DNA of 64,000 nucleotides from a virus (lineage: Duplodnaviria > Caudoviricetes): the IMG/VR virus record IMGVR_UViG_3300031993_000017, one strand, 5' to 3'. A program made the translations under genes and the position numbers. Within the stretch, counting starts at the first letter, position 1. Each line of letters opens with the position of its first letter. The notes under the pieces were generated by a model. The model ran no database searches. It had not been told where the DNA came from and saw only the letters and a program-made list of their open reading frames with translations. Shown piece after piece: positions 150 to 58,546 of this stretch.

Positions 150-2513
150 TTAAATACTGATCGAATTGAGATCAACCGATGCAGGTAATGCAATAAGATC
201 AATAAAGATATCGTTCACGATACCGTGTACGGTGATGTAAACCTTACCTATTACAGTGTTGGCGTTCACACTATCAAGTCCGTTGATATCTGCTCTCATT
301 ACAACTCTGTAATCATCGATCGCACCTACATTCCGCATAGTATCAAGCAGAGGTGTTACACCTGCGTAGAACTTGCTGTATGCTTGTTCGTTGTTGTACT
401 GGAATGTGATAGAGATTCCTACTCTGTAGCAAACATCTTTGATTGCGTCTACAAGGAATCTTGTGGAAAGATTCTCAAGTGCATTGTAGGTTGCAGGTGG
501 AATATCCCAACCCGTGTAATTTCCCCAAAGGTTTGTTCCGAGATCCGGAATATTTGTAATAGCGTTTACATTTACACCTTCACCTGACTGCCATTCATCG
601 AGGTACTTCTTAGGAACGATGTAGTCAAGTTTTCCAATGGCAACATTGTGCTTTCTGTTAGTAGGAAGTGCCCAGGAGTACTGAATACTCTGATTTGCCA
701 TCTGTGACCGTTCGATCATCAGCTTGAGGAAAGAAGGCGGTGCGATACTAGAACGACTTGTTCCAGCATATACGAAATGTCCCCAAGGTGCGAAGTAAGC
801 ACTATGAGTAGCGAATAATGGTTCGGTATTCTTATAATCTGTGGAAAGTTTAGTAAAGTATTTTTGTGCGTCACTACGCTTTAATGTTCTAGGAACATCG
901 ATCAGACCTGCTGCACATCTACTATAATAGGAAACAAACATAATTGCTTTGTGCATAGGTGAAAGGCTGATATTCTGCCAAGTTACAGGTGCCCAAGACT
1001 CTGCATCAATTACATCACCGAACCAAGTGAAGTCTTGATCATCCCAAGGGCTGATGATTCTATCAGGATTATAGGTAAGTCTATCAGTCAGAAGATAAAG
1101 AATACCATCTTCCCAATCATTGACATTAGCAGAAGCATTGTCTGTAGGCTTACCGGTTGTATTTGTATAAAGCCATTCACGATAATAGAATCCGTCTGCA
1201 TCAACCTTATCAACACCTGCATCCTTTACAGCTTTAAGACCCTTGATGTAAATTGTTTCCTCACCGAATCTTGCTTGAGCAAGTGCAAGTGCCTTAGTCA
1301 TCGCATCATCTGCAGATTCCGTAAATCCATGATCGTCACCACCGGTAAGAGATACTTCAAATGTATCTTCTGCTTCATCGAAGTTTCCGAACAGTTCGAT
1401 ATCTACAAACTTAGATGTTACTTCATCAATGTAAAGGATTGTATCAGTAGTTGCAAGTTCATCCATGGTGAACACAAGGTTCTCTACAGCTGTCAGAGCT
1501 CCTGTGGAATCTTTGATATAAGTAATCATGTTCCAATACTTGTAATTTCCATAAGTTACTCTTGCGAGTTTGATAACTAAGGAATCACCAAAGGAGCCAG
1601 GATACTTAGCTTTAAACAGAACTCTGTTATCTACTTGCTCAGGATCTGCAACTGAAACTACTTCTGTCCAGTTACTAGGATCAAATGCATTAGTCCATTC
1701 ACCTTGCCATTCACTTGCATCCCAACGTCTACCAAGTTCCCAATCAGATTGATTAAATGCACCAGGAGTTTCAACAGCATTAACACAATTGTAAATGTTT
1801 CCATCATATCTAACAAGATCACCTACAGCATAAGTGGATTGATCACTAAATGCATCCGGTTCTGCCATATTAGAAGAACATACCTTATACTGCCCGTCAT
1901 ATACACAAGCATCGCCTTCAGAATAGATTGTTTGATTACTGAACGGATCTGCTGTAGGATTGTCAACTTTTGCTTTGTAAATCAATCCATTGTAATTTAC
2001 ATAAGCACCAGTTGTATACTGAGCATGTTCAGAAAAATCATTGATAGAAATATTTGCATCAATGTGTTCATTTGCCTGTACTAACTGTCCATTGGTAGCT
2101 GGATAGTAAAAATCATCACCAGCTTCATATGACTTTGTGTTGTCATAATTCTCTGCACAGAAAATATTACCTTCTGACTTAGTTCCGGGGCAAAGTCTGC
2201 ACACAAGAACATCATATCCTGCAGTAAGAAGTGTGATAGCAGTCTGATAGGAGTAATCTCCATACAAGCGATAGTTAGTAGCAGGTCCACGATAGGTAGA
2301 GATAAATGCTTCAAGTCCTGCCTGGTTTGCAGGAAACTTCGCCCATGTTGTTTCGTCCAAGATTTCATCTTTGGATTTCTTACCAACAGCTTCATAATCA
2401 AAATAACCAGGTCCCCAAGCTGCGGTAATCGGAAGTGCCACTGTGGCATATGAGTTAGCGCCAATGTTATAAGTATAATTCGAGCTAACTTCATTGATCA
2501 CGATTTGTGCCAT
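150..2513 (-). CDS. Contractile tail sheath protein with inserted carbohydrate-binding (CBM5/12-like) modules
   Basis: N-terminal WGP motif, AKYPGSFGD, LTGGDD, FAPW, and C-terminal sheath domain (WGNYT..LSTRFL..FQYN..GAIDDYRV); internal Y..GD.V.Y.G..Y repeats. Confidence 0.9.
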   Translation of the reverse strand: MAQIVINEVSSNYTYNIGANSYATVALPITAAWGPGYFDYEAVGKKSKDEILDETTWAKFPANQAGLEAFISTYRGPATNYRLYGDYSYQTAITLLTAGYDVLVCRLCPGTKSEGNIFCAENYDNTKSYEAGDDFYYPATNGQLVQANEHIDANISINDFSEHAQYTTGAYVNYNGLIYKAKVDNPTADPFSNQTIYSEGDACVYDGQYKVCSSNMAEPDAFSDQSTYAVGDLVRYDGNIYNCVNAVETPGAFNQSDWELGRRWDASEWQGEWTNAFDPSNWTEVVSVADPEQVDNRVLFKAKYPGSFGDSLVIKLARVTYGNYKYWNMITYIKDSTGALTAVENLVFTMDELATTDTILYIDEVTSKFVDIELFGNFDEAEDTFEVSLTGGDDHGFTESADDAMTKALALAQARFGEETIYIKGLKAVKDAGVDKVDADGFYYREWLYTNTTGKPTDNASANVNDWEDGILYLLTDRLTYNPDRIISPWDDQDFTWFGDVIDAESWAPVTWQNISLSPMHKAIMFVSYYSRCAAGLIDVPRTLKRSDAQKYFTKLSTDYKNTEPLFATHSAYFAPWGHFVYAGTSRSSIAPPSFLKLMIERSQMANQSIQYSWALPTNRKHNVAIGKLDYIVPKKYLDEWQSGEGVNVNAITNIPDLGTNLWGNYTGWDIPPATYNALENLSTRFLVDAIKDVCYRVGISITFQYNNEQAYSKFYAGVTPLLDTMRNVGAIDDYRVVMRADINGLDSVNANTVIGKVYITVHGIVNDIFIDLIALPASVDLNSISI

Positions 2514-2515
2514 GT

Positions 2516-2782
2516 TTAATCCTCCTTCAATGTTGTTGATTTCTTTGTATATTTTCTTGTAGGTTTTGACTTATCTTCCCGAACAGGTTTTGTAATATCA
2601 GTTTTTCCTTCAGTAGTTACAACAGTTTTGATTTCCTGTTGTTCAGGTACTTCCACAGGATCACTAACACGAGCAAATTTCGTGTTATTGATGTACCCGG
2701 AAACTGATTTTACTTCACCCGGAAGAAAAGTTACGCCATAGAAGGTTTTTACGGCTTTTGATAAGTTTTTGTAAGTAGGCAT
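2516..2782 (-). CDS. Hypothetical protein, probably virion-associated
   Basis: 88-aa ORF with SD (AAAGGGG), directly upstream of the sheath gene. Confidence 0.6.
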   Translation of the reverse strand: MPTYKNLSKAVKTFYGVTFLPGEVKSVSGYINNTKFARVSDPVEVPEQQEIKTVVTTEGKTDITKPVREDKSKPTRKYTKKSTTLKED

Positions 2783-2819
2783 TGTTTTCTTGCCCCTTTC
2801 TTTCTTATTCTACATCTTG

Positions 2820-3112
2820 ACGATCCTATCAACGGAAGTTAATAGGATTTCGTGAGAAGTTTGTCCGAAGACCTTATTCTCACAGGCATCGCCAAGATGC
2901 TCTTACGCAGTTGCCAATTTTGGCGGCTTCTGCTTACATTTTCCTTGTTTAATGGGCAATTGTTCCCCCAAAATCATTACGCCCTGTTCTCGTCCTGTTG
3001 CCTCAATGTTTGAGGTTCGTGTTCCTGCTACAGCCGGCGACCAGCAATCTAGATTGATGGATTTTTGTAATCATCTAAGAAGCAGAAGTTTTCTAGGTTT
3101 CTACTCCCTTTC
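2820..3112 (-). ncRNA. Candidate structured RNA or 5' leader of the sheath operon
   Basis: Series of hairpins including a cUUCGg tetraloop (2863-2872) and a U-G-containing stem (2823-2848), both favouring the minus strand; 9-bp long-range helix 2927-2935/3080-3088; GC-richer than flanks. Confidence 0.6.
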
Positions 3113-3232
3113 CATCATAAAAGGTTTACTTTATTTTAATATCTAAATCATATTAAACTCCATTTAATTAGATTAAAATATTGTCTTAGATTTTAATGCT
3201 ATCACCAAATTATAAAAATGTAAATGAGATAC

Positions 3233-3261
3233 TTGATTTTCATTTACAATTATGCTATAAT
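3233..3261 (+). promoter_or_regulatory. Sigma-A type promoter of tnpB
   Basis: TTGATT-N17-TATAAT with extended TGn; inverted repeat TGTAAATGA (3219-3227)/TCATTTACA (3240-3248) flanks the -35. Confidence 0.7.
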
Positions 3262-3284
3262 ATATTTGAAAGGAGGTGGGTCAT

Positions 3285-4553
3285 ATGAAATTATCAACAT
3301 GGAAATGTAGTTTGAAACATCTTACAGCGAAACAGTATGAATATCTTAGAGAAATGTGTCATCTTAGTAAGAATGTGTATAATGAATCTGTATATAACAT
3401 TCGGCAACAGTATTTCCAAGAAGGTTCATATCTTCGATACGAAGCGAATTTCAGTATAATGAAGTTTTCTGAAAATTACATCAATTTAGGTTCAAATGTT
3501 TCTCAGGCTACAATGAGATGTGCAGATCAATCTTTCAAATCATTCTTCGCTCTTTTGAAGAAAGTAAAAGACGGTGTCTATGAAAATTGGAAAGTAAAAC
3601 TTCCACATTACTTAGATAAGGATGGAGTCTATCCAGTTACGTTCATACATGCTGGTGAATCTAATTATTCTAGTGGAAAATTCAAAATCCCAATGTCTAA
3701 GTATCTTAGAGACAAGTACAATGGAATGAAATTTTATATCGATGTTCCAGAATATGTTCGTGACAAGAAAATACATACAATATCAATCGTACCAAAGTAC
3801 CATGGAAAATATTTTGAAGCAAGATTTGTATTTGAAGAAAATGATGTTACCGAATCACATATTGATTATAATTCTGCATTGAGTATTGATCTTGGAGTAA
3901 ATAATTTTTGTACCTGTGCAACTTCCACCGGAGAATCTTTTATCATTGACGGAAAAAGAATAAAGTCTATCAATCAATGGTACAACAAAGAAAATGCCAG
4001 ACTGTCAAGCATAAAAGATTTGCAAGGAATCAAAGGTTGCACAAAAAGACAATATTTATTAGCCAGAAAACGAGAACGTAGAATTGATGATTTGATTTAT
4101 AAGTCTGCAAAGTACATAGTTAATTATTGTATTGAACATCAGATTGGTAATATTGTTGTAGGTTACAATGATGGTTTCCAAGATCGAGTTAATCTCGGTA
4201 AAGTAAATAATCAAAAGTTTGCAATGCTACCATATGGAAAGTTGAAGTCAAGGATTCAATATCTTTGCACAAAATATGGAATAAACTATGTGGAACAGGA
4301 AGAATCTTATACATCTAAGGCGAGTTTCTTAGATCGTGATGAAATTCCGAAATGGAATCCATTGAACCCAAAGCAAGGGGAGTTCACAGGTAAAAGGATA
4401 TATCGTGGACTGTATCAAACAAAAGATGGCATTCTGATAAATGCAGATGTGAATGGAGCGTTAAACATACTAAGAAAAAGTAGCGTTGTGAGTTTAGAGA
4501 CTCTATACAGTAGCGGCGTTGTCCTTACGCCTACAAGAGTTAGAATCCTGTAA
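3285..4553 (+). mobile_element. tnpB: TnpB RNA-guided endonuclease (IS200/IS605 family, IS1341-like, no tnpA)
   Basis: SIDLGVNN (RuvC-I), IVVG at RuvC-II with alternative Glu in EESYTS, INADVNGALNI (RuvC-III); ATG 3285 after SD AAGGAGGTG. Confidence 0.9.
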
Positions 4554-4592
4554 CAAGGAGTTTAGCGACTTAAAATCCAACTCTTCATAAAA

Positions 4593-4650
4593 AGATTCAT
4601 ATAAATTTAAGAGTTTACTTTATTATTCTTAAATTAAATTATATGAATCT
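4593..4650. terminator. Long inverted repeat between convergent genes (bidirectional terminator or omegaRNA 3' region)
   Basis: AGATTCATATAA...TTATATGAATCT. Confidence 0.5.
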
Positions 4651-5249
4651 TATAGGATATCCGGATCAACAGCAATCCGTTTTAATTTTTTCTCTACGTA
4701 AGAAATTAAAACGGTACCGTCACAGACCAACGGAATGGAAGCCTGGTATAATTTACCGCCTTTATTATAGGCGTTTGTAGTAGAACTATAATCAATATCA
4801 GTTCCTGGTTTGATTTGTACTCCAAATCTTGTTTTCCTTGGTACTTCATAAGGAAGTGTAACATCAATGAAATACATAGAGCTATATTTGAAAAGTAGTT
4901 CTCTAACAATTTCATCTAGATCTGCCATTCTTGTAGCTAAAGCTGTAATAGTGTAATTCAAATCAATGGGAATTACTCTTTCATTATAGAAATTATTAGT
5001 TTCATTATCAAACCCAGCTGAAACTCCAGAATGTAATCTGGTGAAGTTCATGCGATCTTGTGCAATATGCAAATTAGTGTCTCTGAAAAGTGCTACAATT
5101 GGAAAACTAACTTCATCATTCTGAATTTGTGCAGCCAAATCAATTACACTTTCAGGATCAATTACCCGGACTACAGGGTTAGGGACTCTTTCCGGATTAA
5201 AGGAATCTAATAAATCTTCTGTTAGTGCGTTATCATAGATGTAAATCAT
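4650..5249 (-). CDS. Putative tail completion/neck protein
   Basis: Position between head-closure-like gene and sheath; FPIVAL...IPIDLNYTI pattern resembling tail terminator proteins. Confidence 0.45.
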   Translation of the reverse strand: MIYIYDNALTEDLLDSFNPERVPNPVVRVIDPESVIDLAAQIQNDEVSFPIVALFRDTNLHIAQDRMNFTRLHSGVSAGFDNETNNFYNERVIPIDLNYTITALATRMADLDEIVRELLFKYSSMYFIDVTLPYEVPRKTRFGVQIKPGTDIDYSSTTNAYNKGGKLYQASIPLVCDGTVLISYVEKKLKRIAVDPDIL

Positions 5250-24671: not shown

Positions 24672-26939
24672 TTACATTTCCTTTCTAGAATTTTTAATTG
24701 AATAAGCCATCATCCTCCCGTAGAGAGTTTCGTTCTCTATCATATCTAGAAACTCTTCCCGAAGTATACGTCTTTTAACGATGTAGTCTTCGATGTTTTG
24801 TGTATACATCTCTGACACAACACCGTTTATTCCATGTGCAGGATCTCCCTTAGGTTTGCTACCATCAGGTTCATTGTAAACAGGTAACAAGTACTCCATT
24901 TCTCTAAGATGGTACTGAATCCATTTTATTTCTTCTGGATCAGTTGTATCAACCGACTTAGGTTTTGGATACTTACAAGGAAACTCTTCTCCATACCAAC
25001 GAAGTGTAGTAGTTACATCACACTTAGATGGGAACGGCAAGAAGTTAGCAGCTTCGCACATTATACTAGAAAGAAGTCTTCCACCTTCTTCCCAAGCCTC
25101 CATTGGAACTTCGGCTAATAACTCATCGTGGACGGGAATGAGTAATCTTCCGCATATCTTCTTCCAATCGGGGCTATTTTCTAGCATTATCATAGCAAGT
25201 TTTGTTTGGTCGGCCGCACTCTATATTACTATATCTTTCAAAATAGTACAGACTATATCTTCTGAATATGTTAAAACATTCAGTTCACCATTTCAACTGG
25301 TAACTCATCTTCCAGCTTACTCCTCAACAACGAGGATAGTCGTTACACTTTAATTTCTACTTTAGTCCAAGCATGTAATGTAGAAATTCTTAGCACGGTA
25401 TCACCTGCTATCCATTTCTGGACCGTAGGCTCTCTTAGTCAGCTGCTTCGTCATTTGAAATATGTATATCGCTTTAGCTTAGATACATTGTCTTATTCTG
25501 CTGATACCGTTAGCACTGCAATTATGCAGCACACCTATGAGTAATGTAGTTAGATGAATAAGGGCAGTGCAGCGGTCTACCCTGTATCATAGAATTCAGT
25601 GTCTGACGAGATCCGTCTTGAATCTTACTACGATTGTTAGTAACTCGTATGTGCTCATTCTCGTACAATTCTTTTATTCTAGGAGCCATCTGCCCCATGT
25701 ACTTGTACTGTTTGAATTCTTTGCACAATTCATCTTTTATTCTCTGCGGAATATCCGAAGATTCTTTTAAAGTAGAAGGATCTAAAGGATCTACATCCGG
25801 ATTAACGTATCCTTTCATTGCAGAAAATTCAAACTCGGGTAACTGCATCTCAGGAATATGTCTACGCCTCCCAAGTATTGTTTCAACATATCCATACTTT
25901 CGTGCAAACGCCTGTGCAGATTTCATAAGTGCTAAGATTCCAGGAAATGCTTTCAGAACAGAATCATATACTTTCTGAGCAGATTTCAATTTCTCCTCTT
26001 TTGTCATATCGTCGCGTTTGCCATACAACTGATCTGCAATAGACGGAATAGCACGACCATAGGTTATCAAATATGGTAAAATTTAGACTATATCATTACC
26101 GTGTTGTTCAACGGTACTTTGCGCTTCCGATGGTAACTCATCTTCCACCGTACAATTAGTCGTTAGACCTTATCAAGAATATTCTCGATCTTGGCACAGG
26201 ATTTGCATCAGCATTCCCTGTTAGCAGATTGATAAAGTGATCATTTCCTATCACACCAATTAAGTTCAATCCACACCCATGAGTAATATGGTTCACAAAG
26301 TTTTCATTCTACACTACAAGAGAACAACTTGTGTAGACGGGGCATAACCTTTTTAGTTTACCCAATAGTATTGTTTTTGCTTCTCCTCGACGCTTCTTAC
26401 CGTCAGGTTGGTACTCACCTGTTTCTGGATGAAACTCCAAACATTTTTCATATGGAACATTGAATGATAAACTTGCAATTCCTGCGTAAATGTCCCTTCC
26501 GTCTTGGAAGGTCTTTATCATTCCTTTATCACCGCTTATAAAAGCAGTTAATCTTGGTTCTTGTGCCTTGAACCTGTATTATGAATGTTCGCTACACATT
26601 CTCTCCGATCACTCGGAGTATCGGACTATATCTTAACACTGAAATTCTGTTACCAAATTTGCAGTGTTCCCTACGTTTCCACTTCGCTTGAAGCGTACTC
26701 TACTCGCTTGGTTATCTCAATTGACCTAGCACTACAGCTATTTATACATTTCTGTAAATGTCAATTTCTAGCATTCGATAGTCTCTACGGTTGTAAATTA
26801 TACAACCTCGGTATCGCCTTATTGTCGGTAAGGTTTCACCGATTTATAGGGTTTTACTACAGCACACAATTCTACTGTAGTCAGAAGACAACATTACATA
26901 GGCCGGGGTCTGTATCTGTATCTTCCAATCGCTTGACAA
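24672..26939 (-). CDS. polA: Family A DNA polymerase, C-terminal (palm/fingers) subunit; exons 26939-26874, 26566-26360, 26067-25579, 25220-24672 (~436 aa)
   Basis: Splicing restores motif A SSDYS|AQEPR, motif B RRGEAKTILLG|ITYG and IQG|SAAD; motif C VHDE; TTG start 7 nt after SD GGAGGTG. Confidence 0.85.
25221..25578 (-). ncRNA. Group I intron 4 in polA (358 nt, no ORF)
   Basis: Exon ends CAGGGU pairing with IGS GCCCU; P10 GCUGCACU/AGUGCGGC; GUAACGACUA and AAGAUAUAGUCU core; terminal G. Confidence 0.9.
26068..26359 (-). ncRNA. Group I intron 3 in polA (292 nt, no ORF)
   Basis: Exon GGGU/IGS GCCC; P10 GGUUAU/AUAACC; AACGACUA and GAUAUAGUCU core; terminal G. Confidence 0.9.
26567..26873 (-). 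ncRNA. Group I intron 2 in polA (307 nt, no ORF)
   Basis: Exon ACUACAGU/IGS GCUGUAGU; P10 UUGUGU/GCACAA; AGAGACUA and AAGAUAUAGUCC core; terminal G. Confidence 0.9.
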
Positions 26940-57292: not shown

Positions 57293-58546
57293 CTAAATAT
57301 TACATGCGTTTACCACAATTGGATGTAACGCTACACCCTCTACTCCGTTTGCATAGGCATTCGGAAATACTTTTTTAAGAATCTGTAAACTCCCATTCAC
57401 ATCGGCGTTGATAAGTTTCTCCGTATTACTCTGAAATAATCCTCTGTGGACTCGTCTCTCTTTTCTGTAGTTCTCTTTAATCGGTGATTCATTATCTAAG
57501 AAACTTGTTCCACTTGTATAACTTTCTTCTGTGAGCACTACAGATATACCATATTCTTCAGCTTTATATTGGATCATCTCTATCAATCTGTTATATGGTA
57601 TCTGTATAAAAGATTGGTTAATTCTTTTGCTCATTTCTGATTTCTGTTTCCAACCTTTATTTTTGCCTATAACTATTACAGAAACATCGTCTTTACGAGC
57701 TTTGTCAACTATGTATCTACTTGCCTGATGTAAATAGTTGTCAACAATCTGATTTCTTTTTTCTGTTATACTCCGTATCCTCTTTGTCGAATGTCTATTA
57801 TTCATTCTCATAGCAATTGACTTATAATGAGCTAACAATTTATTGTAGTATTTGTTCTCAGACTTCAGACCCTTACCGTTTATTATAAATGGTTGTTCAC
57901 CAAAATTATTTGTTACGGTTGCTAAGTTATCTAAGCCTATGTCAATACTATAATATCTGTTATTATCACCTATTGTTTCCGAAATTTCTACATTATAAAC
58001 CACCTCCAATTCAATATGATTTGCTTTAGGTATGAACCTTACTTGCTGAAATGACACATAGTTTTCTTTGCTTATAAATAATGGCTCAACTGTAAAACCA
58101 TTAAATACTTTTGGAAACTGTAAGATACCATTTTTCAATTTTACTTCTTGATTTGTAAGGATCAAAATTGATCTTCCGTTTTTATCTTTGTACTTTGGCA
58201 GTTTCGGTTTTCCTAAGTATTTATCTTTATGGTTCTTCCAATCTTTAATTGATGCAAAGAATGATTTCCAATTCTTATCAAGTAATCTAAGTACCTGCTG
58301 TGCAGACTGTGCGGTTGGCATATTTTTATAGTCAGGATACCTTGCATCAGCTTTCAATGTTTTATCCAAGTCTTCATATCTTAACCAGTTGTCATTGTTT
58401 ACAAATTCTTGTCTAATTAAATAGTTGGCGTGGTTATACAAATTTTTTGCGTTAAAGCAAAAACCATCTATAAGATAATAATAAGTATTTGTTTGTCTGA
58501 TTTTGTGTTTTTCTACTCTTTGAATTACCATATTTATTATTACCAT
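57293..58546 (-). mobile_element. tnpB: Second TnpB (IS200/IS605 family, no tnpA)
   Basis: SIDIGLDNL, IVIGKNKGWKQ, EESYTS, INADVNGSLQI. Confidence 0.9.

Follow-up and report, generated by a model that had tools for sequence, protein, structure and literature searches.

An apparently gene-less 300-nucleotide element of the IS200/IS605 family with a predicted TnpB omega-RNA scaffold precedes a phage tail sheath operon

Introduction

A 64,000-nucleotide (nt) stretch of a Caudoviricetes virus (IMG/VR record IMGVR_UViG_3300031993_000017), hereafter the window, contains a structured region at 2820-3112 on the minus strand, between a TnpB gene on the plus strand and an 88-amino-acid (aa) open reading frame (ORF; 2782-2516). 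A preliminary description, made from the letters alone, had proposed a novel phage noncoding RNA or leader at this place, possibly linked to the divergent TnpB. The locus raises the question of what kind of RNA would be made here and what it could do in front of a tail sheath operon.

The minus-strand sequence is as first described, and its reading as a highly structured RNA-coding stretch is borne out by folding: the minimum free energy is -93.2 kcal/mol (z -3.80), with 0 of 100 dinucleotide shuffles as good, and z for the plus strand is -2.25. The element strand has no ORF of 40 aa or more and the opposite strand has two, of 53 and 64 aa. Translation of the longest stop-free sense-strand frame gave no NCBIfam match, and a DNA similarity search against GenBank phages gave no match. 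The stretch had been said to bear no known RNA signature, and this holds because Rfam 15 returned no family over the element, either at the gathering score or at E ≤10. A group I intron lies elsewhere in the window (26602-26894, minus strand; Rfam RF00028, 50.2 bits, barely above the gathering score).

Results and Discussion

A 300-nt insert with an empty site in related phages

Sheath proteins 74% identical to that of the window occur in two IMG/VR relatives, L001 and L002. Their collinearity with the window extends as far as 2807/2816 and begins again at ~4686, and both show an empty site at exactly the position of the element. In L002 the empty site reads AAACCTTTTAT/GATATAGAA (the slash marks the junction) and the window reads AAACCTTTTAT, 300 nt and GATGTAGAA, with no target duplication. 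In a fine alignment of the right junction, window ...GGATCGTCAA/GATGTAGAA stands against L002 ...CCTTTTAT/GATATAGAA. Homology to the relatives restarts exactly after the minus-strand TCAA (2820-2817) and the same AAACCTTTTAT is present in the window at 3127-3117, on the far side of the insert; the sequence between 3116 and 2817, 300 nt long, has therefore been inserted at a place left empty in L002. GAT is common to both sides, making the exact junction ambiguous by 3 nt. From these boundaries and the homologies given below, we identify 3116..2817 (minus strand) by sequence as an apparently gene-less mini-element of the IS200/IS605 family, PATE-like and with a predicted standalone omega RNA. 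Its parts and neighbors are listed in Table 1.

Table 1. Coordinates of the mini-element, its parts and the neighboring features in the window
Feature	Position	Strand	Basis
PATE-like mini-element without gene, 300 nt	2817..3116	-	homology to L001/L002 ends exactly at both termini
Target/transposon-adjacent motif (TAM) TTTAT, directly 5' of left end	3117..3121	-	TTAT before 5/5 copies and related tnpB elements
Left-end-derived part	3041..3116	-	alignment to left ends of tnpB-bearing L028, L033, L008
Decayed left-end hairpin	3076-3095	-	within left-end-derived part
GAUGAU, 5' strand of long-range helix	3070-3075	-	within left-end-derived part
Hairpin of left-end-derived part	3041-3060	-	predicted in 4/4 close copies; one compensatory change
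Central domain: long irregular hairpin and small hairpin	2942..3039	-	conservation in four close copies
TnpB omega-RNA scaffold (predicted), right end	2817..2941	-	model R1, 132 bits
Helix Ha	2907-2933	-	covariation, 30-sequence alignment
Helix Hb	2884-2902	-	covariation, 30-sequence alignment
Helix Hc, cUUCGg cap	2852-2883	-	covariation, 30-sequence alignment
Right-end hairpin (Hd)	2825-2846	-	covariation, 30-sequence alignment
Terminal TCAA	2817-2820	-	scaffold end is transposon boundary
Flank readable as putative guide, GAUGUAGAAUAAGAAAGAAA	2797..2816	-	inferred from position; enters ribosome-binding region of 88-aa ORF
88-aa ORF, first gene of sheath operon, 3' of element	2516..2782	-	homologues before sheath gene in L002, G004, G007
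Tail sheath gene, after 88-aa ORF	150-2513	-	PHROG tail sheath
Separate, divergent TnpB-only IS605-family element	3214..4669	+	boundaries from L003, L004
Neighboring tnpB	3285-4553 (ORF 3276/3285-4553)	+	Pfam PF01385, PF07282; NCBIfam NF040570
TAM of neighboring element, TTAT	3210-3213	+	directly 5' of left end 3214
Left-end hairpin of neighboring element	~3220-3246	+	boundaries from L003, L004
Neighboring element's own omega RNA (predicted)	~4476-4669	+	R1 alignment, weak
Second TnpB, 417 aa	57293-58546	-	NF040570; 33% identical to first

Several further differences and peculiarities were observed around the locus. Window positions 2808-4685 correspond to 976-5723 of L002, the window being without ~4.7 kb present in L001 and L002; this segment encodes ORFs of 410 and 982 aa as well as the last 155 aa of a 346-aa protein, none with Pfam hits. 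The window ORF at 4650-5249 is the truncated N-terminal 191 aa and stops inside the right end of the TnpB element. An AT-rich stretch of 82 nt occupies 3128-3209. The sheath protein is unusually long (787 aa) and includes a CBM_5_12-like segment that scores slightly below the Pfam cutoff. Finally, the identical sheath protein is encoded on a 13-kb Logan contig (SRR9008933) that breaks at ~2897, 115 nt before the 88-aa ORF; this break inside the scaffold hints at repeats in that sample, or at alleles with and without the insert.

Copies of the element lie in late-operon leaders

Exact-pattern scans derived from the window copy alone found nothing. A copy 87% identical to it, L094, lies in the 200-kb phage G004, both flanks being unrelated in a whole-record search, and pattern scans on the blocks conserved between these two copies found L116 (identical to L112), L119 and L120, a divergent copy in phage G007. 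The four further copies, from related phages and short metagenome contigs, have unrelated flanks and each sits at a different place. All five start directly after TTAT and finish in TTCGTCAA, and the four close copies are 87-90% identical to one another. L120 (8462-8840, minus strand) keeps the family left end, has a near-consensus promoter (TTGATT-17-TATAAT) and a different interior, and is located upstream of the genes for the head protease and major head protein. Only five copies turned up in very large collections, so the family is rare.

Each of the five copies is oriented like a start codon 26 to 70 nt downstream. The genes that follow are the 88-aa ORF and sheath in the window, a holin and an endolysin in G004, a head protease and the major head protein in G007 and, for the remaining copies, two genes without known function. 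Portal proteins of G004 and G007 share 61-62% aa identity with that of the window phage. As the element is ~87% identical in nucleotides at different loci and the portals are only ~62% identical, the element must have moved recently. The recurrence of gene-less guide-RNA elements in late-operon leaders of related phages is a point of possible interest.

The leader of the sheath operon also receives other elements. In G004, a different TnpB element (L136, G004:109448-112876; right end ...GGAGTAGTTCAC) lies directly upstream of the homologous operon of small ORF and sheath, which makes this leader a recurrent landing site for IS605-family elements; in G007 the site is empty. TAACCTT with an A/T run occurs at or beside the insertion sites in seven late-operon leaders (window 3117-3127, L002, L094, L116, L120, L135 and L136) and may be a promoter element or a target context. 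Within the window it has 3 matches, with 2.7 expected, and is not enriched. We accordingly rejected AACCTTTTATGAT or TAACCTTWWWW as a repeated promoter motif of the window, and no common motif is visible upstream of its other operons.

The right end is homologous to TnpB omega RNAs

Alignment A8, which covers the final 120-145 nt of all five copies, has compensatory changes in 9 of 35 pairs, and from it we built a covariance model, R1. At more than 25 loci, all from the TnpB clade retrieved with the window's own neighboring TnpB, R1 has full-length, sense-strand matches that span the final ~75 nt of tnpB and ~50-100 nt beyond it. Scores at tnpB loci include 63.9 bits (L024), 62.4 (L010), 59.7 (L026), 56.8 (L031) and 56.6 (L009), and the best of these matches, that of L024, has an E value of ~1e-13 to 4e-13. 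The blocks common to copies and tnpB loci are, in order, AAAAGUAA, stem Ha, UAGGGGC with stem Hb, GAAUAAGG-hairpin-CAAACUUC (Hc) and GAAAUCCC-hairpin-GGG..UCAA, and the right hairpin of the L008 tnpB element is identical to that of L116 and L094.

The proposed structure agrees with the pattern of substitutions. In an alignment of 30 sequences, which was fitted to R1 and is to that extent biased toward the structure, 89% of cells pair, compared with ~42% in slid controls, and the covariation score is 0.513, compared with 0.06-0.09. Both partners vary in 31 of the 35 pairs, and none of 500 shuffles attains the observed values. Compensatory changes also occur among the gene-less copies themselves, in the inner stem of Ha (GCC/GGC to AUC/GGU) and at the tip of Hc. 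Sequence and covariation together identify the last 125 nt as an omega-RNA scaffold of the neighboring gene's own TnpB clade. This family of omega RNAs is absent from Rfam.

Part of the fold first described for this stretch survives the comparison. Its hairpins near 2913-2924 (inside 2907-2933), 2886-2900 (2884-2902), 2852-2883 and 2823-2848 (2825-2846) all keep pairing through double changes across the 30 sequences. Two other proposed pairings are not conserved in homologues. The 9-bp helix 3080-3088/2927-2935, said to close a multi-branch domain, is perfect in the window, has a mismatch in L094, and in L116 and L119 has its 5' strand replaced by a different hairpin (alignment A7); ~0.17 perfect 9-mer complements are expected by chance in 300 nt, and the domain itself finds no support in the homologues. 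The loop-loop complementarity between UUGGC and GCCAA occurs in the window copy only.

The left end carries the target motif and a decayed hairpin

Over its first 75 nt the element can be aligned to the left termini of four tnpB-only elements, L028, L027, L033 and L008, in the pattern TTTAT/AAGAAGGGAGCGTAAAACC(hairpin)GGGAT. With L028, L033 and L008 the common pattern is TTTAT/AAGAAGGGAG.GTAAAACC(hairpin)GGGAT. This left-end match and the R1 matches at tnpB 3' ends argue for a PATE-like element and not for a new class of RNA. Directly before the copies stand TTTAT (window and L120), CTTAT (L094) and ATTAT (L116 and L119), and TTAT also precedes the left ends of the tnpB elements L028, L027, L033 and L008. 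TTTAT is the published TAM of ISGst2 TnpB2 (10.1101/2023.03.14.532601). The supposed late promoter motif at 3117-3126 is flank that includes the transposon target TTTAT, and no repeated motif of this kind was found in the window.

Subterminal hairpins lie on the same strand, ~18 nt from the left boundary and 8 nt from the right one, where the element terminates in TCAA; the ends have no terminal inverted repeats. The two hairpins of L116 and L119 are almost the same, with CCAATTACC-TTTA-GGTGATTGG on the left and CCCATTACC-TTTA-GGTGATGGG on the right. Hairpins are found at both ends of L094 and L120 as well, the left stem of L094 being perfect and of different sequence. The left hairpin of the window copy is degenerate, with two mismatches and one extra base, and given this decay the window copy may no longer be mobile. 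All four close copies are predicted to form a long-range helix of 6 bp (3070-3075/2819-2824), in which one compensatory change is seen.

A conserved central domain has no counterpart in the tnpB loci searched

Between the two ends lies a domain of ~95 nt, composed of a long hairpin with purine-rich internal loops (2980-3039) followed by a small hairpin (2954-2968). The long hairpin is predicted in all four close copies, with three compensatory changes. This is the most conserved segment of the element: pairwise identity among the four close copies is 93%, compared with 68% at the left end and 80-84% in parts of the omega RNA. The interior of L120 differs from that of the close copies, and L120 has its own sigma-70-like promoter.

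A second model, R2, made for the central domain, found only the four close copies; the tnpB loci searched, ten related virus records and genomes scanned in full, and 151 sampled genomes gave none. Looser patterns gave chance matches only, in high-GC or unrelated viral contigs (L113, L114, L115, L118 and L130-L132). We also considered the 5' and central parts as decayed tnpB coding sequence, which tblastn, tblastx, NCBIfam and nhmmer in both directions do not support; shuffled global alignments against tnpB coding sequence gave a single positive, a weak one (z 3.2) between the final 45 nt and L008. The transposon reading leaves the central domain, about a third of the element, unexplained. A strongly conserved extra RNA domain in gene-less guide-RNA elements is a further point of possible interest.

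The neighboring TnpB belongs to a separate element

The suggested link to the divergent TnpB was worth considering: the scaffold is homologous to the omega RNAs of that TnpB's clade, but it does not belong to the neighbor's element. Homology of L003 (94% aa identity) and L004 (76%) to the window covers only ~3210-3216 to ~4605-4658, and since it stops at ~3210-3216, we rejected the structured RNA as a part of the neighboring element. The neighbor is of the same clade as the R1-matched loci and has the TTAT motif in common with the mini-element; its own scaffold is divergent, with the same first helices as R1 and a score of only 4.2 bits. The 3' region of the second TnpB shows no similarity to either omega RNA and no R1 match, and a resemblance of the structured RNA to the 3' end of either window TnpB at the sequence level was likewise rejected. 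The second TnpB (57293-58546) is directly followed by a 1015-aa ORF.

The TnpB clade, found in Clostridia, Synergistales, cyanobacteria and phages, has an invariant D (IDLG), EE (EESYTS) and D (NAD) in alignment A12. It has a G at the canonical RuvC-II position (VVGYN), with the invariant EESYTS farther on. A "rearranged" catalytic site of this type is regarded as active (PMC10691335). PDB sequence searches with TnpB gave no useful alignment for the catalytic residues, and no tnpA was seen beside the related tnpB genes inspected.

A model for retention of the element in trans

Taken as a whole, the observations are very probably best explained by a PATE-like element with a TnpB omega-RNA scaffold. 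Its RNA would be made as part of an operon leader, would be loaded as a scaffold by a TnpB acting in trans, and would allow retention of the element guided by its own flank. Both the expression of the RNA and the use of the scaffold by TnpB are putative and inferred from the analysis. The element appears to lack a promoter of its own, and a sigma-70-like site at 3224-3196 (minus strand) is a consensus match only. Given its sense orientation between the upstream region and the ribosome-binding site, transcripts of the sheath operon would carry it as their leader. The scaffold could then be bound by TnpB made elsewhere in the phage or in the host, the candidates being a more closely matched TnpB encoded beyond the window or the divergent neighbor, with the same TTAT motif. 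Function in trans is documented for standalone omega RNAs (PMC10691335), and PATEs encode omega RNAs for such use (10.1101/2023.03.14.532601).

Because omega-RNA guides are the DNA directly 3' of the right end, the putative guide falls at 2797..2816, and the adjacent 16-20 nt of flank, GAUGUAGAAUAAGAAA..., would be used in this way. The complex would cut sites that consist of TTTAT plus guide (TTTAT with GATGTAGAATAAGAAA; TTTAT with GATGTAGAATAAGAAAGAAA), that is, the same locus without the insert, in co-infecting relatives or excision products. Recombinational repair would then restore or spread the element, and movement to a new site would require a Y1 transposase (TnpA) in trans, for which the near-identical copies at separate loci of diverged phages are indirect evidence. 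The empty allele of L002 differs from the guide flank at base 4 and by a 5-nt indel, and the window holds no second close match to the putative guide. A role of TnpB in homing and retention has been shown in Geobacillus (Meers et al. 2023, 10.1101/2023.03.14.532601).

The novelty claimed for this RNA is removed and replaced with a precise identity. A TnpB clade that is large and apparently uncharacterised gains exact transposon boundaries, a target motif (TTAT) and an omega-RNA structure that has been tested. Elements of this kind are already known, fairly common and selfish, and as the evidence stands this is an ordinary one. Should experiments show that the RNA is used, the repeated placement in late-operon leaders and the extra domain could bear on the part played by RNA-guided nucleases in competition between phages.

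Alternative explanations

The alternative that survives best, which we consider unlikely but take seriously, is an inert scar: a dead transposon remnant whose RNA, if made at all, would be a passive leader, and whose structure is kept through recent common descent. The decay of the left hairpin in the window copy fits this reading, as does the lack, within the window, of a closely cognate TnpB omega RNA, and the identity of 87-90% among the four close copies means that much of the apparent conservation is recency. Against it stand the compensatory double changes that the gene-less copies have accumulated, both in the central hairpin and in helices specific to the omega RNA. The central domain and Hc are moreover more conserved than the left end, which argues for selection, and the copies occupy separate loci, with a divergence between their phages that far exceeds that of the element.

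The element might instead be a domesticated regulatory or processing module of late operons. Through TnpB binding or its stable 5' structure it could control how the sheath operon mRNA is translated or how stable it is, or it could guide TnpB to the control region of its own operon in a TldR-like manner; we hold this to be improbable. All five copies lie 26-70 nt before a co-oriented start codon, the genes that can be named all belong to late operons (sheath, holin-endolysin, and head protease with major head protein), the would-be guide overlaps the ribosome-binding region, and the most conserved part, the central domain, is without a transposon counterpart. However, sense and intergenic placement is also expected if insertion into single strands is strand-biased, if disruption of genes is selected against and if the element depends on a promoter outside it. 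At the same site close relatives lack the element, and the neighboring TnpB keeps the invariant D, E and D of its clade and so is no obvious dead repressor.

A related possibility, quite unlikely in our estimate, keeps the mobile origin of the element and adds a later use: a promoter-less subfamily, marked by the central domain, would have been co-opted by rumen-type myophages as a late-operon leader module, with the central domain as a new functional RNA. If so, the module could supply guide RNA in high dose late in infection, delivered behind late-gene control regions, and TnpB could cut the insert-free alleles (sheath, lysis and head leaders) of co-infecting relatives, so that RNA guidance would bring about marker exclusion. 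Another possible use would be to adjust translation of the downstream operon. In either case the central domain might serve stability, processing or protein binding.

Two further readings are extremely unlikely. A phage-specific structural or regulatory RNA unrelated to transposons, the main proposal of the preliminary description, would be in keeping with the empty Rfam scan, the good folding z-score and conservation in a few related phages, but it does not explain the precise boundaries against an empty site, the TTAT target, the match of both ends to tnpB elements or the full-length covariance-model matches at tnpB 3' ends; what is found instead is a bounded mobile element with ends of IS200/IS605 type, whose 3' 125 nt are homologous to TnpB omega RNA. 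A miniature IStron, in which a self-splicing group I intron between IS605 ends would remove itself from the operon mRNA, would suit the sense orientation of all five copies in transcripts, but there is no Rfam Intron_gpI (RF00028) match at E ≤10 in a scan that does detect the group I intron elsewhere, only ~175 nt are left for a ribozyme core, and the last base is A in all copies and not the G expected of a group I intron.

Comparison with known systems

PATE-like, protein-less IS200/IS605 elements were reportedly described by Dyall-Smith in 2011. The preferred reading, a PATE-like element used by TnpB in trans, can be set against several known systems. In IStrons a group I intron is combined with a TnpB omega RNA, and splicing takes place at the ends of the transposon (10.1101/2023.11.20.567912). 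The element resembles them in combining transposon and omega RNA and in its sense orientation inside transcription units, but it has no detectable group I core and its terminal base is not G.

IS608 of Helicobacter pylori (PMC3201880) likewise has strand-specific ends, a target tetranucleotide 5' of the left end and a right terminus TCAA. Its target is TTAC, compared with TTAT here, and the distances from hairpin to cleavage site are 19 nt from TTAC to the left hairpin and 10 nt from the right hairpin to TCAA, compared with ~18 and 8 nt here. The likeness described here is one of geometry. A difference is that IS608 encodes both tnpA and tnpB.

The right end is closest to the TnpB omega RNA, or reRNA (Karvelis et al. 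2021, PMC8612924), in which the scaffold ends at the right boundary and the flank is read as guide. The RNAs overlapping the tnpB 3' end at more than 25 loci are homologues of the right end in both sequence and structure. The right end differs in having no tnpB upstream in cis, the coding part being replaced by noncoding structured RNA. Standalone omega RNAs are a further close parallel (Altae-Tran 2021, as cited in PMC10691335).

PATEs and standalone omega RNAs as described by Meers et al. 2023 (10.1101/2023.03.14.532601) offer the nearest parallel: they are gene-less, have subterminal hairpins at both ends, insert 3' of a short target motif and encode in their right end an omega scaffold for use in trans. 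The present element differs from them in its setting, phage genomes and the leaders of late operons, and in its extra structured domain of 95 nt, which is strongly conserved among the four close copies and absent from the tnpB-bearing relatives examined.
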